Below are positions 23,851 to 42,009 of a DNA stretch of 64,000 nucleotides, piece after piece. Within the stretch, counting starts at the first letter, position 1. Each line of letters begins with the position of its first letter. The stretch is from Candidatus Borrarchaeum weybense. Lineage in GTDB: Archaea > Asgardarchaeota > Sifarchaeia > Borrarchaeales > Borrarchaeaceae. The notes beneath the pieces were generated by a model. It worked only from the letters and a program-made list of their open reading frames with translations. It ran no database searches and was not told the origin of the DNA. Both the position numbers and the translations under genes were made by a program. Where the stretch lies: the NCBI GenBank assembly GCA_019057385.1, contig JAHQJS010000004.1, positions 384,001 through 448,000 of the forward strand, read 5' to 3'.

Positions 23851-24046
23851 TCTCTATCACAACCTTAATCTTGTTTTTTCTTACTACAACGTGATGCTAT
23901 CCTAGATGGTTTCATGCTATTTCTCATATATTGTTTCTAGAATAAGAAAGTATTTATATCATAACTAGTCCATTACATATATCATGGATAGTTTCACCTA
24001 TATAAAGATATTGAAAGGAAATGCAGAAGCTTAAGAGGGATTCACA

Positions 24047-24976
24047 ATGGAATTTGAATACGGAGAGATTTATCCTTTTGACGAAGAAGGAGTTAACTAT
24101 TCTGGTACGAGTTGGTATGAACTGGTCGGGCTAGACACGGCAAAACAAAAACTTGAACAGTTTGTAAAGGCAATATTGCAGCAATCCTTTTTTGAAGATA
24201 CACGACTTCCCTTTAGACCCTCTATTCTTTTACAGGGTCCCCCTGGTACAGGAAAGACCGCTCTTACTCTTGCTTTTGGTCAAAAAGAAAAATTCCCCAT
24301 TATTATCTTGCTTACTACTAAAATTATCCGCGCAAAACTAGGTCAATCGGGGGAAAATCTAAGTAATGCCTTTGCGTACGTCAAAGATTATGCTATTCAG
24401 AGAAAAAAACCATTGATATTGTTCATCGATGAATTTGACTCTTTCGCTCGCCAACGGGATGACGTACAAGAAATAGGTGAGATTAAGCGGTTGGTTAATT
24501 CGTTATTAACTGAATTAGATGTTTTAATCGCCCAACATAAGAATATTATTCTCATTGCAGCTACTAATCATGCTAACACCATTGATAGGGCCGCATTCCG
24601 AAGATTTGCTATTCAAATTGATTTTACTATTCCAGCACCTGAGTTACGTCATCATATTTGGAGTGAGTTTCACCGTAGAATTCAGTTAAGAATTCCAGAG
24701 TGTAAGTGGGATCTTGACACATTAGTGGAACGAACTGAAGGATATACTGCAGCTGATATCGAGCGTATCGTTCTTAGCGCAGCTATCGAATACATACATC
24801 AGGATCTCGACACAATCAATACGGAATTGCTTCTCCAACAATTAAGGTATGTGACACCCACATCCAAGCACATGGGCAAGGAAGAATTGTCTGATCTTTT
24901 AGACCTAGATAGTATTGATCTCCGCAAGATTAAAGGAATTACCGATGGATTTAAGACTCAAGCAAGTCGTTTATAA
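24047..24976 (+). CDS. AAA+ ATPase (classic clade, single domain)
   Basis: GPPGTGKT, LFIDEFD, AATNH..IDRAAFRRF, GYTAADI. Confidence 0.92.
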   Translation: MEFEYGEIYPFDEEGVNYSGTSWYELVGLDTAKQKLEQFVKAILQQSFFEDTRLPFRPSILLQGPPGTGKTALTLAFGQKEKFPIIILLTTKIIRAKLGQSGENLSNAFAYVKDYAIQRKKPLILFIDEFDSFARQRDDVQEIGEIKRLVNSLLTELDVLIAQHKNIILIAATNHANTIDRAAFRRFAIQIDFTIPAPELRHHIWSEFHRRIQLRIPECKWDLDTLVERTEGYTAADIERIVLSAAIEYIHQDLDTINTELLLQQLRYVTPTSKHMGKEELSDLLDLDSIDLRKIKGITDGFKTQASRL

Positions 24977-27900
24977 CTCTCTTTTGTGGAAAGTAACGGA
25001 CGCCAAGAGTATGAGTTCAAAAGAAAGCTTAAAAACAGCGAACTTCCAAGACATGTATCTGGTTTTAAAAGCTGTCGAAGTAAACAATTTCGGAATACAT
25101 AAGCATTTAACAATGTCCTTTGAGAAACCTATCAACTTAATTGTTGGGGCAAACGCAGTTGGAAAAACTACACTCTTAGATGCTGTTAGCATTGCTTTAG
25201 GTGGAGAGAGTGATCGCTACGGGACTCTCAAAGATTTAGTAGGTTATGTTGGACCCGCGGGAGACAAAGCTTCAGTAACAGTGTACTTGAGAAATCCGTC
25301 TAATGAGAACAAAAATCACCCACTTGTTGACTATGGAATATATACGAACTACGTGAAAGAAGAATTAAAAATTGAGGTCACAATCACCCGAGATTCAGTT
25401 TACTGGCAAGTAAATGATCGACAAAAAAAGCATGGCCGACAAGAAATTCGGAAGATGCTTCAAAGTGCAACCATTCGGATAGATATGTCTGATGAGATTT
25501 TGTTTACACGTAAAGACACGATTGATAAGTTCATGAGCGGAAGTCCTGTCGAACAGTTCCAACAAATTCTCACTTCTCTTAAACTCGCGAACTTACAGGA
25601 AGATATCCAAAACACTCAAGGTGAAGTCAAGAATTTACAAAATAAACTCCCGGAATTAGATTATCGACGGAAAAGTCTTGAGAAGGATCTTGAAGTAGCT
25701 AAACAGTTGAAAGAACAATATGAGCGAAAGTTTGACTTATTAGACCAAAAAGCAAGATTAACAAACATCTTGAACTGGATAGAGTATAATGAATGGCAAA
25801 CACGACTAATAGAGTTAGATGAGCAGACAACTCTCTTAAAAAAAGATCTTGAGGAGTTACAACACGAATACCAAGAAATAGAAACTCAATCTAAGCAAAA
25901 CAAACGAAATGAGCAGTTATTACAAGACCAGCTAAACGAGATGCAAACAAGGCTGACAGATTTAACCCGCCAAAATGAGGAGAGACTCCGAAATATCGGC
26001 TTAATAAAAGAAGATATTGCTGGGAAGGAGGCGGAACACCGTATCAAAGATCAGTACCTTCAAGAAAATGTTCAAAGACAGGAAAATTTGCAAAAAATCT
26101 ACCAAGAAGAAATTATTAAAGGCTCTCTCTTGTCATTAGAAGATTGGAAGAATTCTAAACCATTAATTGAGGAAAAAAGACGTGCACTAAAAGACTTACA
26201 GCAAAAAGATATACAGGCACTACAGACATGCAATAGCCGGTTATCACATCTTGCCACACGGATCAAGCGGTATGATACGCAGGAAAATCAAATACTCAAT
26301 GAGTTAGCTAAACTGAATCAAACTGTAACAAGTGGAACAAAATTTAATGCTGGGGAACACCATGTATTAGCACTACGCCGAGCCTTGGATCAGCTTCTTT
26401 GGGGGAAAAAAGTTACAAAACCGCTATTTCAGGAGATTTTTATAAAACCTGATGGCGAACTCTGGGAAGGAGCCATAAATCATGCGCTTGGGGGATTGCG
26501 TTCATATGTTCTAGCTAAGGATGCGGCAACAATTAATCAATTGAGAGAGTACATGGAACAGAACAATTTCAGTGTTTGGGTCGCACGTTTACCCAAAATA
26601 GCAAATATTCCAACTAGATCACTACAATCTCTTCCTGAAAACTTAAAAGATCTTATAGTAGGCTGGATTGACGATTTTTTGGAGTTTGATGATCCATTTA
26701 TTGCTACCTATCTTTTAGCGAGAACTCGCGCACTTCTGGTAAAGAGTAATGCTTCCGCCACTGAACTCTTAGAACTGGCTAAAATAACGGGCGCAGACGT
26801 GTACACTGCGCAACCCTCGGTATTTAAACCTGATGGACGCTTCCGCACGAACGTCCGAACCTCCTACTCATTAGGAAAAAGAACTGATAATATCGAGAAA
26901 GTCATAGAACTTCAAACAAAATTAGAGCACATCAAAAATGAACGCGCAAAATTAATAGACCAGCGTTTAAAGATTCTTGAAAAAAAGGCAGAGCTTCAGG
27001 ATAAGCAAGCTCAATTGCAAGAACAAATCGATGCATTACAAGATCAAATCACTCACATGGCCAAGAAGGATCCTACATCGATACTGAAATCTATTGAAGA
27101 ACTAGACAAAACGATTAAGGAGCAACATAAAGAAATTGAGCGAATAGCAGAAGAGTTAGAAAGCACTAAGACTCGATTAAAGCCATTAACAGAGAATACC
27201 TTCATTGAGGAAATTAAATACCTTAATAATGAGATCCCTAAAATTCAAGAACAGATTGGGGGATATAGAACTCACGACCAAGTTCTTGAAAATCGTTTAA
27301 TTGAATTAAAGTCAAAAATTGAAACTATGAAAGCCGAATATCAAGATATTGAAAGAGATCTAGAGCTCCGCCGCAGTAAAGTTGCACAATATAAAGAAAG
27401 CTTGGTCGATCCTGCCCCAAAACGCCTTCCACCCAAAACAAAAGTTCTGAGAGAAATTTATGAAATTGATGGTGCTGTAAATCAAATCACAGCCACTGCT
27501 TATGATGTAGAGCAGTACGAGAAACTAGAGAAATATTATCAAGAAACAGGACAAGATATTGAGAGAGTTTCACAAGCACTAGATGAAACTAGACAGCAAC
27601 TTGAAGATTACTATCAAGAATGGAAACAACGAGTCAAGTTTGTTCTTCAACAGCTTCAGGATGTGGCGAACTTTTTACTATCTCCTTTCATTCAGGTTAG
27701 ATGCTCTACAACTAATTCCTTGGATATGAAACAGATTGGTCTAAAAGTAGAGTTTACTAACAAGACGAATGGAAACGAGAAATATGAACTTTATCATGTG
27801 GCTTCCGGTGGTGAGCGTGCTTTAATCACTCAATCATTGTTCTTAGCTTTACATACGCTGAATCGAAGTTCTCCTATCCACATTGTCGATGAATTTACTC

Positions 27901-28106
27901 AACGTTTGGACGAAAAATATCGCGGTCACGCCTTTATCATGGTTAAACGCCTTCTAGAAAAACTCAAGGAAATAAACGGACAGAATGGCGGTTATAACTG
28001 GAATCTGATTCCTCAGCTCATTTTAGTTGCACCAATAGTAGTAGGAAGCTATATCCCTCCAGAAATAGATACTCAATATTTATTCAAAGTAACTAAACTG
28101 AGTTAA
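24915..28106 (+). CDS. SMC-family ATPase, SMC5/6-like
   Basis: Walker A GANAVGKT, two coiled coils around a hinge-like region, signature ASGGER, Walker B IVDEFTQRLD. Confidence 0.85.
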   Translation: MISARLKELPMDLRLKQVVYNSLLWKVTDAKSMSSKESLKTANFQDMYLVLKAVEVNNFGIHKHLTMSFEKPINLIVGANAVGKTTLLDAVSIALGGESDRYGTLKDLVGYVGPAGDKASVTVYLRNPSNENKNHPLVDYGIYTNYVKEELKIEVTITRDSVYWQVNDRQKKHGRQEIRKMLQSATIRIDMSDEILFTRKDTIDKFMSGSPVEQFQQILTSLKLANLQEDIQNTQGEVKNLQNKLPELDYRRKSLEKDLEVAKQLKEQYERKFDLLDQKARLTNILNWIEYNEWQTRLIELDEQTTLLKKDLEELQHEYQEIETQSKQNKRNEQLLQDQLNEMQTRLTDLTRQNEERLRNIGLIKEDIAGKEAEHRIKDQYLQENVQRQENLQKIYQEEIIKGSLLSLEDWKNSKPLIEEKRRALKDLQQKDIQALQTCNSRLSHLATRIKRYDTQENQILNELAKLNQTVTSGTKFNAGEHHVLALRRALDQLLWGKKVTKPLFQEIFIKPDGELWEGAINHALGGLRSYVLAKDAATINQLREYMEQNNFSVWVARLPKIANIPTRSLQSLPENLKDLIVGWIDDFLEFDDPFIATYLLARTRALLVKSNASATELLELAKITGADVYTAQPSVFKPDGRFRTNVRTSYSLGKRTDNIEKVIELQTKLEHIKNERAKLIDQRLKILEKKAELQDKQAQLQEQIDALQDQITHMAKKDPTSILKSIEELDKTIKEQHKEIERIAEELESTKTRLKPLTENTFIEEIKYLNNEIPKIQEQIGGYRTHDQVLENRLIELKSKIETMKAEYQDIERDLELRRSKVAQYKESLVDPAPKRLPPKTKVLREIYEIDGAVNQITATAYDVEQYEKLEKYYQETGQDIERVSQALDETRQQLEDYYQEWKQRVKFVLQQLQDVANFLLSPFIQVRCSTTNSLDMKQIGLKVEFTNKTNGNEKYELYHVASGGERALITQSLFLALHTLNRSSPIHIVDEFTQRLDEKYRGHAFIMVKRLLEKLKEINGQNGGYNWNLIPQLILVAPIVVGSYIPPEIDTQYLFKVTKLS

Positions 28107-28280
28107 GATCCGTAAATCTACACTTGTAGGGCTTATACGTTATTATCAAATATTGTGAAGAATAAAAAAAATATTTATTGTACATTTACATAATATGATC
28201 AAAATATGAAGACTTGAAAAATTAATGTTTCATTTTCATAATTGTACATGTTCCAGTATGACGACTATAAAGGTGACTAA

Positions 28281-31133
28281 GTGATAGAACATAAACCTTC
28301 CTCGAAGGAAACGTATCTACTAGGCATTGACTTAGGCACTACTAACACCTATGCCTGTTTATCAAAAATTCGAGATGAAAGATTATTAGATATTATTCCT
28401 ATAGGTATAACGCAACTCCGACAAAGTTTTCAGACAACTACTGACGAGTGTTTACCTTCGGTAGTTTACTTTCTTAAACAAGAAGAATTTGGTGTAAATT
28501 GTCTTGTAGGTAAAGGCGCTAAGGAACTTATTACTTCAGAACCAGAACGGGTTATCTGTTCGTCTAAAACTCACATTGGAACCGATAAAGTCTACAAGAT
28601 CAACGGGATGTCTTATATACCCCGTGATATCGCAGCAATTATTTTTGATACAGTCAGGCAGAGTGTGCAAGTATCCTCTCCAGAATATCTCCAAGGCGAT
28701 ATAATTGTAGGTGTTCCATCTCGATTTAATGCAGAACAAAAGGCAGATACTCTTAAGGCTGCAGAAAGAATATTTACGAAAGCATCAACTATCTCTTTAG
28801 TGGAGGAACCAGAAGCTATTGCTTTGTGGTATCTCCATGAGGAGATTAATACTGACAGTAAAGATACCTTTCTTAAAAAATGGTGTTTTGGAAAAAGGCG
28901 ATTTTTAGTTATAGATATGGGTGGGGGAACGTTAGATGTAGCCATTATCGAGGCGACACTACGTGACGATGTCGAATTTGATAAAGAGAATCCAAAAACA
29001 TATCCAATAGTAAAACGAATAGCAATTGGTGAATTTACTCAATGTGCAGGAGATGAATTTGACAAATTAATAGCGGAGAAACTACGCGTAGAACTTTATC
29101 CTAATCTTTCAGACGAGGAATATGAACACTACAAGCCATGTTTTCTCGAACAAGCGGAACGGATTAAGTTGGCTATTAGTCTGAAGATGCGAATGCAGGA
29201 CGCTTCCACTACGGTCCGAATACTGTTCTATTTATTAAGCACACATGAACCAAAAGAAAGCATATGGGATGTTGATAAGTACTATAACGCAGTTAAATCA
29301 CTACTTCCTCCCTCTGGCTTTACGTTTTATCATGATTATATCGAGGAATACAATCGAAAACAATGGTTGAAAACTACTATCCTTCGTCCGATTATTGATG
29401 CATATATCCAAATAGATGAGAATGAACGTCTAATTGATGGCCGTTTGTTCGATGTATTCATTCTAGCGGGCGGAATGGCTGAATTTCCCTTAATTGAAGA
29501 CATCTTTCATGAAATTTTAGGTGTTGCACCTGTTCGTCTGCGGAAGGACCCCAAGAGAGCTGTTGCTCGAGGTTTAATTGTTGAACATTATTTTGAGAAA
29601 TTTGACAGTATTTCTAAAAAAACTATCGGACAGACTTATGGCGTTAAAGTTTTTGATCGGAGCAAGCAACAGCCTGTATGGAAAAAATTTATTCGAAGAG
29701 ATGAAGAACTCCCGATCATTAAGAAAAATGTGCTTTCTGGAACATTGAGTGCGAAACAATCTAAGATCCTTTTTTCACTAGGTAAAAAACCTATAGGGGA
29801 GGAGAATTATGCACCTATCCGAGACTACTCGGTTGCATTAGATCCACCCCCAACAGAGCAAATTGCCTTCTCTCTTAATGTTTTAGTGAATGAATCTGGT
29901 GCAATTGAAATAGATGGAAAACGAGGTGATAATTGTGGGTTTATTCGGATAGGGGCATTAACAGGCGATGAAAGAGAAGAAGATTATGAGCCATTAATAC
30001 CTGAAGCGACTGATCGGAAGTTCACTCGTGAAAAACTTAACGAGTTACTTCCTAAAAAGGAATCGATAATTCGACCAAGAGAAGATAAGAGCCCTAAGAC
30101 AGTTTTAATTGAATTTAGGAAAGTTCTTGATCAAGAAAAGAAAAACAGAAGGAAACTCAGTCAACATCGTGAAGAATTTGCAAATTTAAGGAAAATTAGA
30201 AAAGCGCTCCGATCTCTTCAACAGAGTTACAGAAATAGATTTGGAGATCTTAAGAAACTCAAACATAATATAGCCACAAAAAATGTCTGTTTTGATGAAC
30301 TTCGAGAATACGTCCTTCTATTTGGTGATATTGTTAAATCGCATGTTCAGCGTAATGAGCCATGGAAACTTGACCAATTAACTGCATCTATTATCGCTGA
30401 TTTGACGGAAGTGATTCTAGAATATGGTCTACGTGGTGAAGTGCTATTTTCTTTAATGAGGCTCATTAGATATGTTATTCTCAAAATTCCAACTTTCCAG
30501 CCACCTAGATTCCAAGATTTGATTGATTTCGCCTTAGAAGAAAGTGGTAAATGGACTGAAGAGGTTTACTACGCCTTAAGTTTGATGGCAAATCCTTCAT
30601 CTTATCTTATCGACAAAATTATTTTTGCCCTCACATCAAAATACGGATTTAGTGCACTTCATGCCCTAGGCTTGTTTGTTAGACGACAAAATGAAACACA
30701 AAGTTATGATTTTCCAACTATACAAACTATTTGGGTGACTCTTCTTCATTTATTCACAAAAATAATTGAAGATGCTCCCTATGAAATTGAATTACCTCCA
30801 CTCAGCTCTGATATTATAGCCAATAGCAGATTTCAATCAACTAAATTTGACAATTTAAGAAAGAACGAGACATTTCTAGAAAAACTCTTCTTTATATTGG
30901 CTTACTTCGTGAAAAGTGAAGTTGATCTGCCCGAAAAACAGCGATATCCTGAAATGCTCAGAATAATATTTAACAGCAATGAATTACCAGAGATGCTTCA
31001 CTATCAGATCCAATTATGCCTGTACTGGTACGAAGGACAAAAATTCTTAGAAGAAATCGATGCTCGGGATGAAGAATTAGAGACCCAGGAAATAAGTAAT
31101 AGGATTATTGAGTATTATCTCCAAATTAACTAG
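28281..31133 (+). CDS. Divergent Hsp70-like protein with helical C-terminal extension
   Basis: GIDLGTTN, VGVPSRF, EEPEA, IDMGGGTLD, LAGG motifs; C-terminal third unlike DnaK. Confidence 0.85.
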   Translation: MIEHKPSSKETYLLGIDLGTTNTYACLSKIRDERLLDIIPIGITQLRQSFQTTTDECLPSVVYFLKQEEFGVNCLVGKGAKELITSEPERVICSSKTHIGTDKVYKINGMSYIPRDIAAIIFDTVRQSVQVSSPEYLQGDIIVGVPSRFNAEQKADTLKAAERIFTKASTISLVEEPEAIALWYLHEEINTDSKDTFLKKWCFGKRRFLVIDMGGGTLDVAIIEATLRDDVEFDKENPKTYPIVKRIAIGEFTQCAGDEFDKLIAEKLRVELYPNLSDEEYEHYKPCFLEQAERIKLAISLKMRMQDASTTVRILFYLLSTHEPKESIWDVDKYYNAVKSLLPPSGFTFYHDYIEEYNRKQWLKTTILRPIIDAYIQIDENERLIDGRLFDVFILAGGMAEFPLIEDIFHEILGVAPVRLRKDPKRAVARGLIVEHYFEKFDSISKKTIGQTYGVKVFDRSKQQPVWKKFIRRDEELPIIKKNVLSGTLSAKQSKILFSLGKKPIGEENYAPIRDYSVALDPPPTEQIAFSLNVLVNESGAIEIDGKRGDNCGFIRIGALTGDEREEDYEPLIPEATDRKFTREKLNELLPKKESIIRPREDKSPKTVLIEFRKVLDQEKKNRRKLSQHREEFANLRKIRKALRSLQQSYRNRFGDLKKLKHNIATKNVCFDELREYVLLFGDIVKSHVQRNEPWKLDQLTASIIADLTEVILEYGLRGEVLFSLMRLIRYVILKIPTFQPPRFQDLIDFALEESGKWTEEVYYALSLMANPSSYLIDKIIFALTSKYGFSALHALGLFVRRQNETQSYDFPTIQTIWVTLLHLFTKIIEDAPYEIELPPLSSDIIANSRFQSTKFDNLRKNETFLEKLFFILAYFVKSEVDLPEKQRYPEMLRIIFNSNELPEMLHYQIQLCLYWYEGQKFLEEIDARDEELETQEISNRIIEYYLQIN

Positions 31134-31199
31134 ACTTGAGATATCATCACTAGAACAAGAAGATTTTAGGCAAAGTTATTAGTCTATAAAAATTAATGC

Positions 31200-31970
31200 T
31201 CAAATCTTAAGAAGATCCGAACGCACCGTAAAATATTTTTTGCGAGGATTATCCACATTAAGATGAACCAGTTTCTCAATCGCAAAGGTTTTCATATATT
31301 TATCAAAATACTCTTTTGGTAGAAGAAGAATTGGACAGTGCATCTCATAAGCCCCTTCTTTCTTTTTATCTATAACTTCTCCTTCCTCGATTTTGAGCTC
31401 AATTTGACGTGCCAGTGATTTTAAATACTTTAGAAGAGTTTCTCGTCTGCAATACTCGGGAAATCTCATTGGTCGTTCACTAATAACTTCAGGAAGATTG
31501 CTTGATAAAAATTGTGAAATTTCACGAATTTTTTTAACACAATTCTCTCCTAGAGGTGTAAGAGTATTGTTTTGGGAAGAAAAAAGTTGTTCCACACGTC
31601 CCTTTGGATCCTTTCCGATATATTTGTAAACTAAATTAGGTTTGACATTGCGTATTATACCCCAACAGAATAATTGCACTTTTCGCACTTTCAATAATTG
31701 AAAATCTTCCTTAGTCCAAGAATCAAAAACTTCTAAGGCGTCTAATCCAATTTTTCGTATTGTACATCTCTGAACGCCTGCTTCCTTCACAATCAAACCC
31801 ATGTCTTTGAGTAACTTAACCGCGCTATACGCAAATTTACCTTTTGGAAAATATACTGTTCTTTCAGCGTCACTTTCATTAATAGATTCAGCGTCTCTTA
31901 GATAACAGAGAACCTCAATAACATCTTTTCGATCAAAAATCCGGATCATTAAAACTTCGTCCATAGCCAT
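31200..31970 (-). CDS. Hypothetical protein, N-terminal winged-helix-like region
   Basis: VKLLKDMGLI...TIRKIG pattern. Confidence 0.45.
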   Translation of the reverse strand: MAMDEVLMIRIFDRKDVIEVLCYLRDAESINESDAERTVYFPKGKFAYSAVKLLKDMGLIVKEAGVQRCTIRKIGLDALEVFDSWTKEDFQLLKVRKVQLFCWGIIRNVKPNLVYKYIGKDPKGRVEQLFSSQNNTLTPLGENCVKKIREISQFLSSNLPEVISERPMRFPEYCRRETLLKYLKSLARQIELKIEEGEVIDKKKEGAYEMHCPILLLPKEYFDKYMKTFAIEKLVHLNVDNPRKKYFTVRSDLLKI

Positions 31971-32527
31971 TCCTCACTATCATTTTCAATTATTTCACTC
32001 CTTGCCATCCGCCCCATCTTTTGTGAGGATTTGCAAACTGTAATTTTCTTTTGCCCAGTTTATCTCATTCATCCAACTACATGAAGTTACAACTAAATAA
32101 ATATGCAAAGTAGATAAAAGGCATAACTATTAATCAGGTCTATGATTATTGTTTATCCTTCATATAGTGCATGAAATCTACTTTACTTGAGAGAGACTGC
32201 AATAAAACTGTGAAAGTGGTTTTTTGTAGTTTTTAACTACTATCTTGCTACGATTTTGCTTTTAGTGAGAGCTCGTATAGATTCAATTAATGAAAATAAC
32301 GATCTCAAATTTATGACAAACTCGATCGAACATGGTGAAGATTCTAGGAAAACGCTGAAAACATGCTAATGGTGATCTACTGAACGATCACAAGTGAGAT
32401 TTGCGCGGATAAACGAGTGGAATCGAAAAGTATACTACAAAGGTTAACCTTAAGGATCCAATTTGAGTATATATATACTTGAATTCACAAATGAAATTAC
32501 ATAAATATACTTGAAGAATGTGATAAA

Positions 32528-32842
32528 ATGGCTGTAAATGATGTAATAATGGATAAAATATTATGTATGGTGTACCATTGGCAAGATGCTTATCCCAGTA
32601 TATCTGAATTAAATAAGAGATTCGAAATAAAAAATATGGAAACAATTGAAGCAGATAGGGAGATATGGGAAAGAATATTAAAATTACAGGCTAAAAAATA
32701 TGTAGAAATCAAAAGACCTCTTATTTCCATAACAAATCATGGCATTAACTATCTAAATAAAAAATATCCAGAACTTGCTGAGCGAAGTATAAAAGAATGC
32801 CTTTTTGTAACTTGCAAAGATTGCGATATGTTAAGCTCTTAA
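32528..32842 (+). CDS. Small winged-helix protein
   Basis: ILKLQAKKYVEI....ISITNHGINYL pattern. Confidence 0.55.
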   Translation: MAVNDVIMDKILCMVYHWQDAYPSISELNKRFEIKNMETIEADREIWERILKLQAKKYVEIKRPLISITNHGINYLNKKYPELAERSIKECLFVTCKDCDMLSS

Positions 32843-33051
32843 TTTTGAATATTCTTTGAGCAATGCCTCTTATTCTAAATAATTTGAAAGACCGCAGAGT
32901 GTTTAATATGCGCCTCAAGTCGCTTGACTAGTTAGTGTCCTATGATTATTAAACAATAAACTGGTTTATTTGTTCAGTTTTTTCAATTTGTTCCTGCTGG
33001 TTGATTAAAGGTAATTTTTTGAGTATACGAGGACAAAGGTTTTTGATGATT

Positions 33052-33299
33052 AATTTGTGTCTAAAAATAGAGATTTAAGAAAAACTAGAAGGAAAATTAC
33101 GAAAAAAGGTTATGTGTGTCTTAGATTTGTGGAAATAGAATTGATTAGAATTGAGAAAAATGAATATACTAAAATTAAAATGATCTTTGTCAAAAAATGA
33201 CTAATCAGAAATGAGAATAAGAATTTGTGTCTAAAGAGAAAAAATAGAGCAGGAAATTTAAGATAATTAATTTTTGGACAATTTTTTTAGACACAAATT
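33052..33299. repeat. Cluster of 14-bp AATTTGTGTCTAAA repeats
   Basis: Direct copies at 33052-33065 and 33222-33235, inverted copy at 33286-33299, degenerate copy near 33112-33125. Confidence 0.75.
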
Positions 33300-33429
33300 G
33301 AAGGTCTTTTTCATTTGCCCTGTTCAAGTGTTGAAAGATCGTATTGGGCAAAACCATTATCTACTAGGTGTTTGCGTTGTGGATACCAAATCCTTACGCC
33401 TTTTATAAATAAATTTCCAACCATTTTGT

Positions 33430-35133
33430 ATGATCACAATGCCACATATATTGGGATGGTATTCGGTATGGGAACGGTTGGGACGAGCAGGTTATCTAAA
33501 GTTATTTGCTTTTCAGTATAAGGCGGTTTATGCATTCAGGGATGGAAAAGATATATTTGTAAAAGCACCAACGGGTGCAGGAAAGACGCTCATTCCGCTG
33601 ATTTGTGCTACTCTTATTCTTGGAATGAAAAAACGATGTGTGTTCCTTGTACCGACCAGGCGGTTGATCGACCAGACCTATGACCGACTCAAAGACTGGT
33701 TTGAAAGTATACCACATTGCGAAGAAGAGTACAATATCGTAACCTTAACAGGAGATAATCGACCTTCTTACAAAGAAATACGAGAAGTGCACATAATCAT
33801 AACAACCTACGAGTCTTTTAATGGTATGTTGGCAAAACATTACAGACATTCACTTTTGAACAATGTCGGACTTGTGGCGATTGATGAAATGCATTATGTC
33901 GGGGATGTAGAGAGAGGGACGCATCTTGAGGAGGCTATTGTCAAAGCGAAGTTGTGGTTGCGACCTCGTCCTCAGATGATCTACCTTGCGGCTACGTTAG
34001 GGAATATACAAGAAATTGGGGAGTGGTTAAAAGCTACAGTCATCGAAACAAAAAAACGCAAGTCGGAAATCATTGTTGGATCACCCATTAACGTCTATAA
34101 TGAGGATGAACGGTTAAAGGTTATTGCTCAGTTAGTTAAAGAAACGGATCAGATAGAGATAGGGGCAAAGGAAACTGACAAAAGATGTGTGCTGGTTTTT
34201 TGTAGATCGAGATGGCATGCCGAAACTAGAGCACAGAATCTTGCAAAAATGTTGGAGAAGGAAGGATACAAAAAAACTGTTTCATATAGCCACAGAGGAC
34301 TGAAAACTGTGGAACGACAAAAGCGGATGAAAGCGTTTCAAAAGGGTGAAATTGACGTGTTGTTCACCACAACAGAATACAAGGAGGGTGTGAATGCTCC
34401 AGTCCTGCGGGTCATCATAGCTGATACCGAGGTGTTCAATTCTCAGGACATTGAACAGATGATCGGAAGGGCAGCCCGTCCGCGATTTTTTCAGATCGGA
34501 TATGCAAATCTGATTATTCAGGGAAACATAGAAGACATTCTCGAAAATAAAAGAATAAGGATAGAGGAAGGGGTAGCCCATTTTGAGGAATCACCATTGG
34601 AAAGTTGGGCAAAATATCATTTGAACGAGATCATCCTCAACAGGTTAGCTAAGGGTGCCTGTTCGATAGGTCGGCTTATTAGGTATCTCAAAGAGTTTTA
34701 TTTTTACTTCGAGGATACAACTCAGATAAAGAATTGGTATAAAGTTATGGAAAACGCAATAAGTGAACGAGAGATGTTTATGCTTACCGCAGACAACTAT
34801 ATGATACTCTTCTCTTTAATAGATAATGACGATAGATACAATGCGAAGGATAAGAAGAACTTTCACTCTTTCGTAACTGAATTCCTGATGCGTAGTCGCA
34901 AGTGCGCTGAAACACAAAAAAGAAGGCGTAAAAGGGATAAAAAACTCGTACTTGAAAAGAAGATGGCTCTTGTTTTCTTGAAAGAATACTTAACTAATAA
35001 ACTAAAACGTTATGATGCTGAGCTAAAAACTCAAGTTAAAACTCATCTAGGCTACCTCATCCATATTGGGTTTCTTAAAAAACAGGAACTGGAATCTAAG
35101 GCAATAAAGGAAGGATTAGGAAGTGCAGTCTAA
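33430..35133 (+). CDS. Ski2/Hel308-like SF2 helicase (N-terminal part of a split helicase-Cas1 gene)
   Basis: APTGAGKT, DEMH, LAAT, HRGL, QMIGRAARP; ends midway through the winged-helix domain. Confidence 0.88.
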   Translation: MITMPHILGWYSVWERLGRAGYLKLFAFQYKAVYAFRDGKDIFVKAPTGAGKTLIPLICATLILGMKKRCVFLVPTRRLIDQTYDRLKDWFESIPHCEEEYNIVTLTGDNRPSYKEIREVHIIITTYESFNGMLAKHYRHSLLNNVGLVAIDEMHYVGDVERGTHLEEAIVKAKLWLRPRPQMIYLAATLGNIQEIGEWLKATVIETKKRKSEIIVGSPINVYNEDERLKVIAQLVKETDQIEIGAKETDKRCVLVFCRSRWHAETRAQNLAKMLEKEGYKKTVSYSHRGLKTVERQKRMKAFQKGEIDVLFTTTEYKEGVNAPVLRVIIADTEVFNSQDIEQMIGRAARPRFFQIGYANLIIQGNIEDILENKRIRIEEGVAHFEESPLESWAKYHLNEIILNRLAKGACSIGRLIRYLKEFYFYFEDTTQIKNWYKVMENAISEREMFMLTADNYMILFSLIDNDDRYNAKDKKNFHSFVTEFLMRSRKCAETQKRRRKRDKKLVLEKKMALVFLKEYLTNKLKRYDAELKTQVKTHLGYLIHIGFLKKQELESKAIKEGLGSAV

Positions 35134-37468
35134 GGTAATAAAGAACGGGAAATATAGCGTAACAGAAACTGGACAATGGGCAAGTCAATTTCTATTAAAG
35201 ACCAGCGATGCAAAGAAGATCCACAAATTTCTCCAGACACAGTATTTTTATTCAGAAGACGACGCTTGTAAAAAACTGGCGACTCTTATAAGTGAGAGTG
35301 TCCGTGAGAACGATAATTCGCGATATAGAGCGCAACAATATGAGTTGTTCATATTATCTTTAGTAGAAGGGTTCGATATTGATGAGGCAGCGGAAAACGC
35401 TCGGATGCGACAAGGGGATGCCGAAGGGTGCAGAAGAACTGCCGCGTGGATTGCAGAGGCAGTTAATGCCTACGTTGGAAAGAACATTCCGAAGATCGCG
35501 GAAATGGCAGAAGGAATTAGTGAAGCGCTTACCGTAGATAAAAGAAGGGAAATAGGACCTGGGGTGCGAAGTTATGCAAAAGAGAAACCCTCGTCATATC
35601 CAGGTATTCAAAAAACAATTTGTTCTGTTATTAATCAATTAGGAATTTGCACATATGATGCGATCCATAACATAATTACTGACAAATATGGTGAGTCAGT
35701 AGATCGAACGACAACAATTTGGAACATCCTTGATTTAAGGGCGAAAGACGAAGTTATAACTTTATCAAGAGGCAAGGGAATAGGGCGTCCCGTAATCCAT
35801 GTGTGTAAAAAGGGAATGAATGTACCTGAACATATGCGCAAGACTTGCGGATCCTGTGTATTTTACATATCCTGTGACGATGATGAAAAAGAACGAGACA
35901 ATCAAAGATTTATCTGTGAACTGCGAAGGGAATGCAACAAGCGCGTGGAAAAAAATATTGTAAGCACGTACGTTACGAGCAATATGGGTGCGTGTAAATA
36001 TCATAATTCGTCTCAAGAGCGAAAAAGACGAAGTTTTCGTAAATTTGAGAGGACAGACACAGGCAAACCTATCTGCCAAATTTGTAAATCGGATGCCGTT
36101 AAGGAACCAACCGCTTATGATCACTACACCATATGTTCCAATTGTAATTCACAGTATTACTACCTTTGCGACGGCAGGTTCAGTGTTCAGCCAGGTGTCA
36201 GAGATTTATTACAGCAAGCATTAGAAGAAATCTATGGAAAGTCCGTTAAACCTGTTAAAAGGTGTGCAAAACTAGAGGGTTCTTTAGATCGGCAATACGT
36301 TGAATTAACCATTAAGAAAGGGGATGCAGCTCATATTGACCAAAATAAACTCATTTATATTCCAAAAGAGGAGAAGACACGTTCTTATTTGTTAGATGCC
36401 ATTGAATGTGTTAGAGTGCTTGACGGTGCATATATCACGCCTTATGTATATGAGAAACTCGATGACAGAATTTTATCTGGCAAGAATGTGAATAGACCGC
36501 CAAACGCTTCCTTTGAAGGGTATATAAACATACCTGACGTGCACAATCAACTGAAAGAACGTATACAAGAAATTCGAGAGCAAGAAGTTGGTTTGGCATT
36601 GGCGAGGATACTTATAATGGGTAAGAAAATGAATAATGCAATTCTTACTCTGCAAGCTGGTGAGGAGGGATTACTGTGCCCAGTAGATGCCAGCAGGTTA
36701 TTTTTCAAACAAATGAATGTTGTCGCCCATACTATCATGTATTGGACGGGAAATAGAGAAAATCTGCTCAGTTTCGAGGCGGTTGGCGAACGATACGCAT
36801 GGAAAGCAATTAAACGCGCCTTGAAGGATACATCTATGCGCTTTGAAAATCGTACACAGGAACGATATATCTTTTCGGTTCCCTATATCGGCAAAGTTAG
36901 GGCACGATCTCCCTTTAGTGCAGGACTTAATGCCATTTATCGCCGTGTCCTCGAAATATGTAGAGAGGTGCTTTGCGAAAAAGGATTCTCTTGGTTTCCT
37001 GGCGAACTCGTACTCCATTATAGAAGAAGAAAAGACCAACAAATCCCCATTGGAACAGCTCTTGATTTCCGAGAGTTGTTTTTGGCACTGTTCAGATTCA
37101 CTTATATGAAAGCGTGCAAGAAGGATCAAATTAGGAATACAGATTTTGTACTGTCAAGTACATCTCGCGAGGAAAAAGTATATACCCTTACATACGAGGC
37201 AGAGGATAAAGTTAGAGACTTAATCGAAAGCGTCATGAATAAAGAGGTATATTATCTTGGAAAACAGATGTCACTTTGGAAAGCAATGAAAGAATGCGCA
37301 CGTTCACTTCGCAACTTTTTATTAGAGGGATCTAAATTTATTCCTTTTGTCTGCGCATTAAATGAGGAGCAATTTAAAAAGATTTTAAAGACTTTCCAAA
37401 ATATAGAGAGGTTTTGTGGACCTTCAGGTAAAGGACCTCCTGTTTCAATGTTTGATATCTTATCATAA
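35123..37468 (+). CDS. cas1: Hel308 C-terminal domains + HTH + Cys-rich Zn fingers + Cas1 integrase domain
   Basis: N-term YSVTETG..AS and GDAEG...AAWI (Hel308-like); several CxxC motifs. C-term Cas1 pattern LLSFEAVGERYAW...RSPFSAGLNAIY...VLHY...ALDFRELF, with the E/H/E catalytic positions present. Confidence 0.8.
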   Translation: MQSKVIKNGKYSVTETGQWASQFLLKTSDAKKIHKFLQTQYFYSEDDACKKLATLISESVRENDNSRYRAQQYELFILSLVEGFDIDEAAENARMRQGDAEGCRRTAAWIAEAVNAYVGKNIPKIAEMAEGISEALTVDKRREIGPGVRSYAKEKPSSYPGIQKTICSVINQLGICTYDAIHNIITDKYGESVDRTTTIWNILDLRAKDEVITLSRGKGIGRPVIHVCKKGMNVPEHMRKTCGSCVFYISCDDDEKERDNQRFICELRRECNKRVEKNIVSTYVTSNMGACKYHNSSQERKRRSFRKFERTDTGKPICQICKSDAVKEPTAYDHYTICSNCNSQYYYLCDGRFSVQPGVRDLLQQALEEIYGKSVKPVKRCAKLEGSLDRQYVELTIKKGDAAHIDQNKLIYIPKEEKTRSYLLDAIECVRVLDGAYITPYVYEKLDDRILSGKNVNRPPNASFEGYINIPDVHNQLKERIQEIREQEVGLALARILIMGKKMNNAILTLQAGEEGLLCPVDASRLFFKQMNVVAHTIMYWTGNRENLLSFEAVGERYAWKAIKRALKDTSMRFENRTQERYIFSVPYIGKVRARSPFSAGLNAIYRRVLEICREVLCEKGFSWFPGELVLHYRRRKDQQIPIGTALDFRELFLALFRFTYMKACKKDQIRNTDFVLSSTSREEKVYTLTYEAEDKVRDLIESVMNKEVYYLGKQMSLWKAMKECARSLRNFLLEGSKFIPFVCALNEEQFKKILKTFQNIERFCGPSGKGPPVSMFDILS

Positions 37469-37703
37469 ATACAATTCACTTTTTGCTCTCTTTTTCGACT
37501 TGGATTAATTTAGACCATCAACCTCTTCCTTTTGGTTCTCTAAGAAATGCTTCTTCTTGGTGAAAAACCTAACTAAGAATAAATTTGATTCAATGTTTAT
37601 TTAAATGAAAAGAAGAACAAGAAAGGTTTTTTCCTCCATCTCCAAAGACATAGATAAAAACGTTACTAGATCGCTTATTTTTACAAAAGGAGTTCATAAA
37701 ATA

Positions 37704-37750
37704 ATCCGTTATACAAAAAGCGTTATTTAAAAACCGCAATGCTTATATAC
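37704..37750 (+). promoter_or_regulatory. Promoter region of the cas7-like gene; putative target of guide 1
   Basis: TTATATA at 37743-37749, ~34 bp before ATG 37783; 44/47 identical to 38771-38817. Confidence 0.7.
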
Positions 37751-37782
37751 TCGGTTGCAAAGGTATATTTGAGGTTTTCAAA

Positions 37783-38598
37783 ATGAAAAAAACTAAGAAA
37801 CAGATCAATGTTCATGCCTTCACTCCTATTGCGAAACCGATCAATACCTCCATACAGAAAAATTCCACTATGCTTCTTTTGGGAGAAATTCCGTATGTCA
37901 ATGGATCGAAAACATTTACTACCAAGCTGTATTATCTCAAAGGTTTGCGAGGAATGCTGAGGCATGCCTGCATGGACTTAGCACGTGCTTACGATATCGA
38001 GGTCTGTCACAGTTCTGAAAAGACTGAACTCAGGGATGGGACAAAACTCGTCTCGCAAGGGTTTCATCCGCTGGGTGCCTGTGATCCTCCCTGCATTCTG
38101 AGGCGTATCTTCGGTACGTTCAGAGAAGACTCCCGCATTAGTGTTTCCGCCGATCCCATCACTTCTATCAGCCATAAGGAATACATTACCGAAGTTCCCG
38201 TCCAAAAAGTTCATATCGCCAGTGAAAATAGGATTGCTCTTTCCTATGACAGGATCCCCATACAAGACTTTAGACAATCCTATTTTTCAGGTTACTTTAC
38301 CTTTTCCATTGATGCCACCCAATTGACCGATGATGAGATTAAATTTCTCTTGGAATCGCTGTTGCATATAGAGTACTATGGTGGTGGCAGAAGTGCGGGC
38401 TATGGTCATGTCAAAATTCTAAATGTTGAATTGCTGCACATAACAATCGAAAGAAAATTTGAATCTGAGAACGGAACTCTGAAAGTCGTTGAAGAGGAAA
38501 AAGTAACTCCGCTAGAACTTGATACTCTCGATGACTGGACGGAAAGTATATCCCTATCTGCACTGACACAAGAACTAGAATTGATGGATGGGGAGTGA
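37783..38598 (+). CDS. cas7: Cas7/Csm3-like RAMP protein
   Basis: KGLRGMLRH, C..C..RRIFG, ENRIA, C-terminal G-rich loop GGGRSAGYG.V. Confidence 0.85.
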   Translation: MKKTKKQINVHAFTPIAKPINTSIQKNSTMLLLGEIPYVNGSKTFTTKLYYLKGLRGMLRHACMDLARAYDIEVCHSSEKTELRDGTKLVSQGFHPLGACDPPCILRRIFGTFREDSRISVSADPITSISHKEYITEVPVQKVHIASENRIALSYDRIPIQDFRQSYFSGYFTFSIDATQLTDDEIKFLLESLLHIEYYGGGRSAGYGHVKILNVELLHITIERKFESENGTLKVVEEEKVTPLELDTLDDWTESISLSALTQELELMDGE

Positions 38599-38648
38599 AA
38601 AAGATGTTGAATAACCTGCAATACTCGTTATTTCCTTTTTTCTCATCT

Positions 38649-38851
38649 AAGACGGAATGCTTCCCTTGTAGCGAGGGGAGCACGTTCTTGTGCATGAGAC
38701 TGAACCATCTTGGAGGTCTGACGCCTCGTCTCATGGGGATGGATGACAGGCAGGGGACGAGAAAAGTCACATCCGATTTACAAAAAGCGTTATTTAAAAA
38801 CCGCAATGCTTCTATACAATTAATATGCCCGTTATAACATTGATAACGGGC
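38649..38851 (+). ncRNA. Putative guide RNA 1: scaffold 38649-38770, variable segment, 3' hairpin 38827-38851
   Basis: Scaffold homologous to 39758-39875 with compensatory stem changes. Variable part matches 37704-37750. Hairpin gcccgttat-N7-ataacgggc. Confidence 0.7.
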
Positions 38852-38875
38852 TAAAATCTATAAATAGGGATAAAG

Positions 38876-39691
38876 ATGACACAAAATTGGTTTAAATTGA
38901 TAGGAATCACCAAAACGCCTGTGATCACAAGAAGAAGGCGGTTTTTCTATAAATTAGGAGTAATCTCCATTCATGGTCGCCCCAGAGTCTTCGGTAAACT
39001 CACAAAAGGGGAAAGACGCCCACCTAAGACGTATAGGGCGTGGTATGGTGACGTCGAGTTTATCGTGCCAGAAGACAGACTTGACGACGCGCTCGCCATT
39101 GATTGTTTCGGGAGTTTCACTAATGAAGGCATGGGACAAATGCAATGGAAAGAAGCGAAAAAACTCTACAAAAAACCCCTCTATACTCCGAGAAAAGCCA
39201 AGATCAGAAAAATGCTTCCGAAACTTTCAGAGACGCAAGAAAAACTATTAATAGGTTTTTTACTTCATGATTTTGTCCATACCGAAAAACACAACAGCAA
39301 AATCTATACCGAGGTTAATATATATGATGGATTTGTCTATGAATTGGCTAAAAATCATCATAATTACACGATAGACGATAGAGAAATCCCTTTGCTCTGT
39401 ACTCTTCAATATTACGATAGGCTTTCTTCAAGAATCTCAAGAAAATTCCGCTTTTCTGCGTCCTCACGCTATCGCGTCACTGAAATAGAAAAAATAGATT
39501 TCGACGAACTTAAACAGGAGATCGAAACGCGCCAATATTCCCTATACGCGCTTTATAGTTATGTCTATAAGTCTCAGACACTCAATAAAATCAACGAAGC
39601 ACTCAAATTCGGTTTTTCATCGCTAAAAAATCATCTCTTATTAATGGTTAACCTGTATATTGATGACTCACAAGAGGCTATATACTTATGA
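38876..39691 (+). CDS. Small RAMP (Cas5-like) fused to an HD nuclease-like domain
   Basis: KTPVIT first strand, G-rich loop FGSFTNEGMGQM, then LLHDFVH...NHH...YDRLSS (Cas10/Cas3-type HD pattern). Confidence 0.65.
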   Translation: MTQNWFKLIGITKTPVITRRRRFFYKLGVISIHGRPRVFGKLTKGERRPPKTYRAWYGDVEFIVPEDRLDDALAIDCFGSFTNEGMGQMQWKEAKKLYKKPLYTPRKAKIRKMLPKLSETQEKLLIGFLLHDFVHTEKHNSKIYTEVNIYDGFVYELAKNHHNYTIDDREIPLLCTLQYYDRLSSRISRKFRFSASSRYRVTEIEKIDFDELKQEIETRQYSLYALYSYVYKSQTLNKINEALKFGFSSLKNHLLLMVNLYIDDSQEAIYL

Positions 39692-39720
39692 CACGAGAAA
39701 CTCTCGTTTTGAATAGTGGC

Positions 39721-39730
39721 GTTTATATAG
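39721..39730 (+). promoter_or_regulatory. TATA box for guide RNA 2
   Basis: GTTTATATAG ~28 nt upstream of the conserved scaffold start. Confidence 0.55.
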
Positions 39731-39757
39731 GTCTTTGCAAGCGAATATACAAGTTAC

Positions 39758-39957
39758 AAGGCGGAATGTTCCTCGCATCACGCGGAGAACACGTTCTTGT
39801 GCATGAGACTGAACCTGAGAGGTCTGACGCCTCGTAGAAGGGAATGAATGACAGGTAGGGGACGAGAAAGGTCAAAAAACAAGTGGTGTATGCGATAAAG
39901 TGGACGTGTACCAAAAAGTAATATATAAACGATGGAGGGCTCATTTGAGCCCTTTTT
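39758..39957 (+). ncRNA. Putative guide RNA 2: scaffold 39758-39875, segment matching the integration site, terminator-like hairpin
   Basis: Second scaffold copy; 39881-39914 matches the reconstructed empty DUF362 site at 28/34. Confidence 0.72.
39936..39957 (+). terminator. Hairpin plus T-run
   Basis: agggctc-attt-gagccct followed by tttt. Confidence 0.6.
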
Positions 39958-40014
39958 ATCTATTTAAAAACTGAGTTTTCCCGCCGATTTGGTCAAAAAT
40001 ATAAAACTGATATT

Positions 40015-40311
40015 TATGATAAAGTGGATGTGTATGAAGGTGGAACTTGTCAATATTGCAAGGCAATCGTCAAAACCGCGCTACAATCTCTACACAAGAA
40101 AGGAGACATTTCGCTAGTCAAAGATATGCAAGTTATTGTTGGTAAAAACCCTTCCGAGCCATATTCGAAATCAAGTTTAGATTTTATTGTAGGCGATTGC
40201 GCATGTGAATCGACAGATTACGAGGGTATTGAAATTCCTGGTTGTCCACCCTTTGACGCTTTCGTAAAAATCAGAAAAGCAGTGCACAACAATGTTTCTG
40301 AGAAAACATAA
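40015..40311 (+). pseudogene. Displaced 3' end of the DUF362 gene (attR-like)
   Basis: YDKVDVYEGGTCQYCK...SEKT is homologous to the C-terminus of 10277-11596; no 5' part. Confidence 0.85.
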
Positions 40312-40428
40312 TTTTCTTAAGTATAGTTCTAAATTGTCACTCGATTCATAAGTCAAATTTTCAAATATTCATCCATCAATTACACAATCGATCTAGTAAA
40401 GTTCGATTAAAAGGAAAAGGGGAGTTAA

Positions 40429-41172: not shown

Positions 41173-41385
41173 AATGATTATGTTCTTCAATATCACGACA
41201 GAAGTTCCTCAAGTATTTCAGGAAAATTCAGATTTTCTGCGCCATTATTCAGAGAACACTTTCTTGTGAATTAAACTGAACTTAAAAGGTCTAACGCCTT
41301 ATAGAGGTTCATAATAAAACGAAAAGTTAAATTCTATACCTTTAAAATAGCTTGTATACAAATAATGAAAAAAGAAGGAAGATGG

Positions 41386-41490
41386 TTATTTAATTTCGAC
41401 TTTCTTCGCTGGTTCTGGTTCCTTCTTTGGAAGGATCAGAGTCAGAATTCCTTTATCTAGCGAAGCCTCAATCTGGTACGATATAACCAT
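41386..41490 (-). pseudogene. Hsp20 C-terminal fragment
   Basis: Manual translation QIEASLDKGILTLILPKKEPEPAKKVEIK*. Confidence 0.7.
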
Positions 41491-41898: not shown

Positions 41899-42009
41899 AT
41901 GGGACTTTATCTAACTACAAAAATCAAAGCCTGACACGGTAAAGTTCCAATCTATTTTTTAAAGTTTACATCCCATAGATTTGTCAAACTACAAAGCGGA
42001 TGACAAGAC

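Follow-up and report, generated by a model that had tools for sequence, protein, structure and literature searches.

A covarying scaffold RNA in the ARAMP cassettes of Candidatus Borrarchaeum weybense: a candidate guide RNA with tails that match island insertion sites

Introduction

The window analysed here is a stretch of 64 kb from the genome of the Asgard archaeon Candidatus Borrarchaeum weybense. It contains an inserted island whose last unit before the right end is a cassette of the ARAMP (Asgard RAMP) type, coding for a helicase-Cas1 protein, a diverged RAMP and a protein that we call X. Behind the RAMP gene lies one copy, and behind the X gene another (copies A and B), of a sequence of about 125 nt, the scaffold, followed by a variable tail; these RNA-like units and their tails are the subject of this study.

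The protein cassette is already known. ARAMP systems were reportedly described by Makarova et al. in CRISPR J in 2020 as CRISPR-derived systems with a distinct Cas1. In their passages on ARAMP, two reviews call these systems array-less, the earlier one describing the mechanism as enigmatic, and the accounts given in these passages mention no RNA (PMC8730458; PMC12669027). In the literature searched, a search that lay outside the original ARAMP paper, we found no description of the RNA, of its fold or of the rule relating tails to targets that we report below.

Results

The ARAMP cassette and its scaffold copies

Judged by its gene content, the cassette is an ARAMP system: as in the described ones, the host is an Asgard archaeon, a diverged Cas7/Csm3-like RAMP is encoded beside a distinct, diverged Cas1 homolog, and there is no CRISPR array. 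No array-like repeat family was detected among the direct repeats of the 64-kb window. The layout is helicase-Cas1 (~1330 aa), RAMP (~270 aa), RNA, protein X (~270 aa), RNA, and RNA copies stand behind RAMP and X genes, adjoining helicase-Cas1, in about 10 paralogous cassettes of the same genome (G000; 4.18 Mb, 8 contigs), each with two or three scaffold copies that carry variable tails. The paralogous cassette proteins are 57–78% identical, and the cassettes are thus old paralogs rather than fresh transposon copies. Coordinates are collected in Table 1.

Helicase-Cas1 is a single open reading frame (ORF) of ~1330 codons in seven paralogs and two overlapping ORFs in the window, which align to residues 1–557 and 547–1323, respectively, of a 1323-aa paralog. 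The split (35090–35160) falls at a ~33-nt tandem duplication (ESKAIKEG / QSKVIKNG), and since the second ORF starts with a GTG codon of its own, the gene may be functional in its split form and not broken. The RAMP protein also matches Csm3 in PADLOC (1.3e-10), and a profile of it weakly matches Csm3/Cas7 chains of the PDB; its close homologs are from 'Candidatus Sifarchaeia archaeon' and 'Promethearchaeota archaeon', the distant ones from Hodarchaeales and Heimdallarchaeota. Protein X shares with its 12 paralogs an H-D motif and the glycine-rich loop EGMGQ. It matched no Pfam or PADLOC family and no PDB sequence even at E = 1; an AlphaFold model based on the 12 paralogs was poor (pLDDT 63.5), and Foldseek found nothing in the PDB below E = 0.6. 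The labels 'Cas5-HD' and 'RAMP-HD' for protein X were not confirmed by sequence or fold searches, and the idea that RAMP and X are diverged duplicates was dropped for want of mutual similarity.

Copies A and B are 80% identical over their aligned stretch and make up the repeat families D6 and D10. The original prediction, made from the sequence of the window alone, had placed two copies of an unrecognised structured RNA with shared sequence blocks at these positions. The pair is real, as are the shared blocks, but it is an incomplete inventory: BLAST and nhmmer searches of the genome yielded about 25 full-length and 5 partial copies. With a covariance model (R1) built from 25 scaffold copies of G000, every one of the six class members searched proved to carry the RNA, in 3 to about 30 copies per genome, and a search of 55 other genomes of the phylum gave none. 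The word 'unrecognised' was also apt, in that a search of the whole window against Rfam 15 at gathering thresholds returned no match, to a CRISPR family or any other. Cassette copies mostly begin 35–80 nt past the stop codon of the RAMP or X gene, on the sense strand. The unit had been called far longer than a CRISPR repeat, and so it is: scaffolds of about 125 nt lie 1.1 kb apart, each behind a protein gene and without tandem array, which rules out a CRISPR array with its tandem repeats of 24–48 nt and spacers.

Table 1. Features of the island, the ARAMP cassette and its scaffold RNAs in the window (positions 1–64,000), followed by the other islands of the genome with a testable insertion site (positions on contigs C3 to C6). 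CM R1, covariance model R1
Feature	Position	Strand	Basis or remark
Inserted island of ~28.7 kb, defence-type cargo, ARAMP cassette at right end	11297..40012	+	sister-genome comparison
Left junction site (attL-like), homologous to tail B	11290..11323	+	about 26/38 positions collinear with tail
DEAD/DEAH helicase, N-terminal half of split helicase-Cas1	33430..35133	+	Pfam DEAD 2.7e-30
Cas1-like protein, 781 aa, C-terminal half of split helicase-Cas1	35123..37468	+	PADLOC Cas1 2.4e-10, residues 478-734
Site upstream of RAMP gene matching tail A, BRE/TATA-like TTATTTAAAA	37704..37750	+	repeat D8
RAMP, diverged Cas7/Csm3-like, 271 aa	37783..38598	+	Pfam RAMPs 4.3e-6, 27.8 bits against a cut-off of 22.1
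Scaffold RNA copy A	38649..38769	+	CM R1 130.4 bits; pair counts
Copy A, P1 hairpin	38658-38682	+	covariance model R1
Copy A, long-range helix	5' arm 38683-38689, 3' arm about 38752-38759	+	
Copy A, small hairpin	38713-38727	+	
Copy A, pseudoknot	38719-38722 (TGAC) with 38766-38769 (GTCA)	+	
Tail of RNA A, also putative promoter of next gene	38770..38817	+	matches 37704-37750
Hairpin GCCCGTTAT...ATAACGGGC behind tail A	38827..38851	+	sequence reading, alignment
Protein X, 271 aa, motifs LLHDFVH, NHHNY, EGMGQ	38876..39691	+	12 paralogs, 57-76% identical
TATA-like box TTTATATA, about 36 bases upstream of scaffold B	39722..39729	+	presumed promoter role
Scaffold RNA copy B	39758..39874	+	CM R1 131 bits; pair counts
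Copy B, P1 hairpin	39767-39791	+	
Copy B, long-range helix, 5' arm	39792-39798	+	
Copy B, 3' end GGTCA	39870-39874	+	
Guide-like tail of RNA B, after 6-base linker AAAAAC	39881..39914	+	matches uninterrupted DUF362 target
Terminator-like hairpin GGGCTCA-TTT-GAGCCC, then TTTTT	39937..39957	+	sequence reading; presumed function
Displaced original DUF362 3' end (right junction)	40013..40311	+	80% protein identity to residues 341-438 of left copy
Decayed solo scaffold copy, downstream of ZIP transporter gene	41219..41307	+	nhmmer match 41243-41301
Island on C3	C3:60790-66040		tail bases 8-45 match G004 36/38, spanning junction: 13 left, 25 right
Island on C3	ending at 91.9 kb		tail bases 6-48 match 37-38/43, from 7 nt inside right flank
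Island on C4	C4:338.9-349.3 kb		tail bases 8-42 match 29-30/35, exactly at end of left-flank homology
Island on C5	C5:117988-128548		first cassette RNA matches: bases 17-47 in G000 (BLAST), 26/31 to G004
Island on C4	C4:523017-534464		host homology from 7-12 nt past scaffold; tail = flank
Island on C6	at 564 kb		host homology from 7-12 nt past scaffold; tail = flank

Covariation and fold of the scaffold

Folded as single sequences, the two copies are no better than their shuffles (z = -1.5 and +0.4); with both strands folded, copy B did not rise above shuffles and copy A did so weakly. As such thermodynamics are uninformative here, the support for a structure rests on covariation, which was measured on 85 copies from the six genomes of the class aligned to the model. 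Of the cells of the consensus structure, 92% are paired, compared with 82% after column shuffling, and 263 cells carry changes on both sides against 96 in shuffles, none of 500 shuffles being as high. An alignment fitted to the model tilts these figures somewhat toward structure; we judge the signal to be real because partners slid by 1–3 columns are paired in only 40–55% of cells and because many pair types occur.

The first element, P1, is a hairpin of 9–10 bp in which eight of nine pairs show compensatory changes, with up to six pair types per position; the arms of the two copies differ and yet pair (TGCTTCCCTTG/CGAGGGGAGCA in one, TGTTCCTCGC/GCGGAGAACA in the other). The second, P2, is the long-range helix ACGUUCUU:AGGGGACG, which closes the body of the RNA and varies chiefly from G.U to A.U. 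About 180 G.U cells stand against about 10 A.C cells in P2, from which it follows that the structure exists only on the strand that is sense for the genes. A small hairpin, GAGGU...GCCUC, has a G:C to A:U swap in 19 sequences. Finally, an all-against-all covariation scan uncovered a pseudoknot between the loop of this hairpin, UGAC, and GUCA at the scaffold's 3' end; its middle pair (101:163) is GC in 36 copies, CG in 26, AU in 9 and GU in 5, and is unpaired in 9 of 85.

Set against the pairings proposed originally, this fold keeps the first hairpin, whose arms do pair in both copies and change on both sides in eight of nine pairs among the 85 members. Of the proposed helix between tgac..ctcgt and acgag..gtca, the outer part tgac/gtca is the covarying pseudoknot just described, but ctcgt/acgag is not conserved in the alignment, ACG pairing instead with the CGU of the long-range helix. 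The proposed acc/ggt stem was not recovered as a conserved helix. Selection acts on the folded structure of the scaffold, as had been suggested from the two copies and as the covariation across 85 now documents. What stands at the least is a new family of pseudoknotted RNA, about 125 nt long, which is not in Rfam and is confined to a single Asgard class.

The tail of copy B and the insertion site of the island

The island interrupts a DUF362 gene. On contig C57 of the sister genome G004 both flanks are adjacent around an intact gene of 426 codons, the homolog of window positions 8480–11618 running directly into that of 40037–44522; the flanks being contiguous there, the window genome carries an insertion of ~28.7 kb, with borders accurate to about +/-10–30 bases. 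G004, G002 and G003 each have one intact DUF362 gene, that is, an empty site, with frames of 388–426 codons that are 86–95% identical to the right-hand fragment in the window (95% for the G004 ortholog). This fragment, with the 95-codon ORF 40024–40311 after copy B, is the 3' end of the original gene, and the resident half-site at the right junction is 40018–40034. The left DUF362 copy of the window is intact (439 codons, 10277–11596) and a hybrid: it is 92–100% identical to G004 up to about 11327 and about 78% thereafter. The drop indicates that the island brought a DUF362 3' end of its own, and its left 300 bases are this replacement. Apart from the duplicated gene fragment, no inverted or direct repeats were found between the island ends.

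In a Pfam scan of 20 larger ORFs in and around the island (lower limit 100–150 aa), no tyrosine or serine recombinase and no Tn7-type gene was found; five of the larger island ORFs, four in 19079–22430 and one at 31200–31970, belong to no Pfam family. DNA contigs from four sequencing runs over 38600–41400 were mostly paralogous copies and included no clear empty-site contig, and a 198-nt contig from another study spans the right junction.

Tail B matches the intact sister genes at 26 of 34 positions in G004, 25 of 30 in G002 and 24 of 34 in G003, and the match always begins 7 bases before the homolog of window position 40012, where homology to the right flank starts. The first 8–13 bases of the tail (AAGTGGTGTAT..) correspond to gene sequence on the left side of the insertion point, and the right junction of this genome lacks that sequence. 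The later bases match the resident half-site at 16 of 17 positions, a match equalled within 400 nt by 1 in 1000 shuffled tails. Between the tail and the junction lie about 95 bases, including the terminator-like hairpin and its T-run. Because the left-side bases are present and because of this separation, tail B reproduces, to judge from the aligned sequences, the target in its pre-insertion state, and is neither the flank nor a simple duplication of it.

The same comparison was extended to eight other terminal RNAs of the genome, with the sister-genome counterparts of their downstream flanks. The empty site was informative for six of them, which makes seven testable islands with that of the window; of the two uninformative cases, one has a sister locus carrying the same RNA copy and the other only weak, distant matches. 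All seven islands have a tail with a match to host DNA that lies at the right junction or no more than about 10 nt away; the matching part starts at base +6 to +11 and runs for 31–43 nt. For five of the six other islands, none of 300 shuffled tails was as good in at least one sister genome. The sixth match, in the C5 island (score 17, without shuffle control), extends by eye back to about base 11 and starts at a distance of 6 nt from the junction; in that island the last RNA (C5_118035) has a tail without significant junction match. Being paralogs in one genome, the seven islands are not of independent origin, but their targets are unrelated in sequence, as are their tails. In two islands host DNA follows the scaffold directly, as is known for the omega-RNA of TnpB, and in the other five the matching tail is an internal copy, followed by about 50–500 bases of island DNA before the junction.

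The layout of a scaffold followed by a guide that had been read from copies A and B is supported by tail B and by the seven of seven islands that obey its rule. The TCAC/TCAA placed between scaffold and guide is no conserved signal in its own right: TCA closes the pseudoknot strand GUCA/GUGA, ahead of a linker of 6–7 bases.

The tail of copy A

Bases 38771–38817 of tail A recur upstream of the RAMP gene, with 94% identity over 47 nt and 97% over 39 nt, and a match of this kind exists in five other cassettes. The tails of A type are unrelated between three cassette groups, and in these groups tail and RAMP-upstream site vary together, with scores of 26–41 of 52 within groups and 9–16 between them. 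This co-variation would fit a guide that addresses its own promoter, and it would also fit a cassette-specific factor or gene conversion. The stretch itself resembles a complete archaeal core promoter, with BRE/TATA TTATTTAAAA and then about 25 nt, and from its sequence it is surely also the promoter of X. A hairpin similar to the one behind tail A, CCCGTTA...TAACGGG, follows the tail in three behind-RAMP copies of one cassette group.

Solo copies and distant relatives

Scaffold copies also occur away from the cassettes. In G005, an 80% complete assembly from another family of the same class (loci L053–L072), the RNA forms a distinct unit some 270 nt long between variable flanks; 11 of 20 copies examined have a conserved leader of 140 nt with TATA-like boxes, the tails are unique, and no conserved neighbouring gene was found. 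Several solo copies in G000 likewise lie far from RAMP and X genes. One solo copy, decayed and truncated, is in the window 1.2 kb from the insertion target; its ortholog on G004:C57 (L085 3954–4082, minus strand) is full-length and degenerate (62 bits), and the tail of that ortholog has no match nearby.

In distant RAMP–X pairs from other Asgard lineages the two genes overlap, with no RNA between them. One such pair (L116 6001–7591, on a 73.8-kb contig of GCA_027051165.1) consists of a RAMP 50% identical to that of the window and an overlapping X-like gene, and lies between portal/capsid and terminase genes in a region resembling a head-tail virus, with Cas4 and PCNA. Directly behind its X-like gene there is a weak match to the model (16 bits), with the end GGGA..AAAUGUUAUAAAAA in common.

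Other genes of the island and its surroundings

The cargo of the island includes, at 12148–16421 on one strand, genes for a TIR protein (243 aa), an RNase III with double-stranded RNA-binding domain (282 aa) and an Argonaute with Piwi domain (776 aa), a trio that is a possible defence module in an Asgard archaeon. Another candidate defence module, again on one strand (24047–31133), codes for an IetA/TRIP13-like AAA ATPase (309 aa; PADLOC IetA 7.7e-55), an SMC/LmuB-like ATPase (1063 aa) and a 950-aa protein with an N-terminal Hsp70-like ATPase domain. On the minus strand, 17416–19020 codes for a 534-aa protein with an HD domain and the 'HD associated region' (PF19276); it is followed by the four ORFs of 19079–22430 mentioned above, also on the minus strand, and by a fifth (22423–23850) with a sub-threshold match. 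Outside the island, two tandem paralogous genes of ~620 codons (45508–47402 and 48545–50429, minus strand) lie 2997 nt apart and are, together with their upstream regions, 73–91% identical; they account for repeat families D1, D3, D4, D5 and D7.

Discussion

A scaffolded guide RNA for ARAMP

We propose that the family described here is a single-guide RNA for the ARAMP effector, with a scaffold of about 125 nt and a variable tail as guide, and we put the probability of this reading at roughly 0.6. The scaffold RNA may be the guide RNA that ARAMP was thought to lack. The RNA would consist of the long scaffold, a linker of 6–7 nt and a guide of about 35 nt, and would be encoded singly behind genes instead of in an array. 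Its partners would be the ARAMP proteins, namely the Cas7/Csm3-like RAMP, which would bind it, the HD-motif protein X and helicase/Cas1. The pseudoknot would tie the 3' end of the scaffold, and hence the start of the guide, into the folded body. That the RNA is transcribed is suggested by the strand-specific G.U pairs, by the TATA-like box GGYGTTTATATAG, which is kept about 36 nt ahead of four cassette-closing copies, and by the terminator-like hairpin.

RNA B would hold the address of the island's own insertion site in the DUF362 gene. Homing of the island is proposed because of the position of this RNA at the island end and the match of its tail to the empty site, and two routes are plausible. 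The RNA–protein complex might select the integration target for the Cas1 integrase, as in CRISPR-associated transposons (CASTs), or it might recognise and cut the island-free site, after which recombination would copy the island in, as with TnpB; a nuclease for such cutting could lie in the HD motifs of X. RNA A, which holds the sequence of the cassette's own promoter region, would probably feed back on expression. The wider view of ARAMP as functionally not array-less but an RNA-guided, Cas1-based mobile system, in which a Cas7-like/HD effector reads single scaffolded guides that direct helicase-Cas1 integration to a chosen chromosomal site or empty-site cutting, is tentative, and we would give it clearly less than even odds.

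Several observations weigh against a guide RNA. The signs of transcription given above are indirect, and a run of T6 immediately precedes copy A. Tail B matches its target imperfectly (76–83%). The match of tail A spans exactly an archaeal core promoter, from BRE/TATA to the start site, and may be merely a shared promoter. Protein X matches no fold, which bears on what the effector is. The strand specificity of P2, with G.T in place of G.U, would also suit a folded end of single-stranded DNA. Lastly, about 30 solo copies are present in G005 with no RAMP of the cassette family detected, and G001 and G003 also carry copies without a detected RAMP gene; the RNA may thus not need the cassette in cis, or may spread alone. 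For G005, either the proteins act in trans and were left unbinned, or the RNA has a life of its own.

Alternative explanations

The G.T pairs, tolerable in folded single-stranded DNA, lead to an alternative in which the scaffold is the folded DNA end of the island, recognised by the helicase-Cas1 machinery and comparable to the ends of IS200/IS605 elements or to integron attC sites, and the tail matches are by-products of integration, whether through target-site duplication, a flank carried along or gene conversion. It would accord with the presence of a terminal copy at or near the right end of every tested island, at the very end in two, and with the Cas1 integrase and helicase encoded alongside. 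It does not account for the copy in each cassette (here A) that is internal, between two genes, and the left end of the window island has neither a structure nor an inverted repeat to match. Moreover, the tail is about 50–500 bases from the true junction in five of seven islands, in two it holds bases from the far side that a simple duplication of the right flank leaves unexplained, and G:C to C:G swaps in a pseudoknot of 3 bp are what one typically sees in RNA tertiary structure. A DNA end is, in our view, unlikely. Still less probable is a cis-acting element of the RAMP and X mRNAs, serving in the 3' untranslated region, in stability or in autoregulation, with no guide and with tails that are simply downstream DNA. 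Every full cassette copy does begin 35–80 nt past a stop codon on the sense strand, and tail A coincides with a promoter-like region; but such an element has no use for the solo copies of G005 and G000 far from RAMP and X genes or for the TATA-like box that some cassette-closing copies have to themselves, and leaves unexplained why the tails copy the insertion site in seven of seven islands.

The number of copies raises a further alternative, a selfish short dispersed repeat, similar to a miniature inverted-repeat transposable element or a short interspersed element, that accumulates in islands. A genome-wide dispersed repeat had been named from the start as a finding that would speak against an RNA, and with 25–30 copies per genome the scaffold formally is one; the discrete unit of ~270 nt with variable flanks in G005, and the G005 solo copies in general, leave such a repeat some room. 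The RNA reading is nevertheless not overturned, because the copies are tied to ARAMP cassettes or island ends and because no terminal inverted repeats were found at the ends of the window island, a check that concerned the island ends and not the flanks of individual copies. A selfish repeat would also be hard to reconcile with copies that, across about 10 diverged cassettes, always stand in one place and orientation behind the same two genes, and with compensatory changes that keep the fold, and we regard it as very improbable.

Comparison with known systems

With respect to ARAMP as portrayed in the reviews' passages on it, the proposed guide RNA departs from the array-less account in that the cassettes carry two or three covarying RNAs of 125 nt with variable tails, and goes beyond it in that the cassettes lie at the right end of islands whose insertion site is copied by a tail.

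The original prediction had likened the layout to the omega-RNA of TnpB and IscB. The likeness is considerable: a long structured scaffold at the right end of the element, a guide 3' of the scaffold, a two-sided target that exists only in the empty site and, in two of seven islands, a guide that is flanking host DNA with homology from 7–12 nt past the scaffold. An OMEGA-derived guide is nonetheless not supported, since Pfam and PADLOC scans of the larger ORFs revealed no TnpB or IscB and the partners are of class 1 type (RAMP and HD-motif protein) together with helicase-Cas1. The islands are also larger, 5–29 kb with cargo, five of seven have an internal guide copy 50–500 bases off the junction, and the lack of any Rfam 15 match in the window means that no described omega-RNA family is matched.

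CASTs (Tn7-like; I-F3, I-B, I-D, V-K) share with the system proposed here an island with a nuclease-poor, CRISPR-derived effector and defence cargo, and a dedicated guide matching the chromosomal attachment site by the element end. They differ in that no TnsA/B/C or TniQ was found in Pfam scans of the larger ORFs, the candidate integrase being helicase-Cas1, and in that there is no CRISPR array or repeat and the guide overlaps the insertion point. In CASTs the target of the guide is tens of base pairs from the insertion point. CRISPR RNAs of class 1 systems (types III and IV) likewise have a constant part at the 5' side and the guide at the 3' side, and a guide of 34–43 nt would suit a short Cas7 filament with its 6-nt periodicity; the constant part is here a pseudoknotted scaffold of ~125 nt in place of an 8-nt tag, and the RNA genes are single and interleaved with protein genes. 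Casposons, finally, are also mobile elements relying on a Cas1-family integrase, but the island has no PolB among its scanned ORFs and no terminal inverted repeats, and casposons have neither RAMP nor guide-like RNA.

Implications

ARAMP and its haloarchaeal counterpart HRAMP have long been filed as CRISPR derivatives that lost their arrays and work by an unknown mechanism. A covarying RNA whose tail carries the insertion site provides a concrete and testable guide for ARAMP, and it links the Cas1 integrase to RNA-addressed mobility of islands of 5–29 kb loaded with defence genes, to which the window island adds a case with three empty-site genomes as controls. If the proposal is true, it would bear on the exchange of CRISPR adaptation enzymes and effectors with mobile elements. 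It would also mean a compact single-guide architecture of class 1 type, made of a RAMP of ~270 aa, an HD-motif protein of ~270 aa and an RNA of ~160 nt, and an integrase with potential for programmable insertion of large DNA. On the wider, more tentative view of a mobile system, ARAMP would join Tn7-CASTs and OMEGA as a third case in which a CRISPR-type effector and a mobile element united independently, and it would be the first in which a CRISPR adaptation enzyme itself moves kilobases of cargo to an address specified by RNA.

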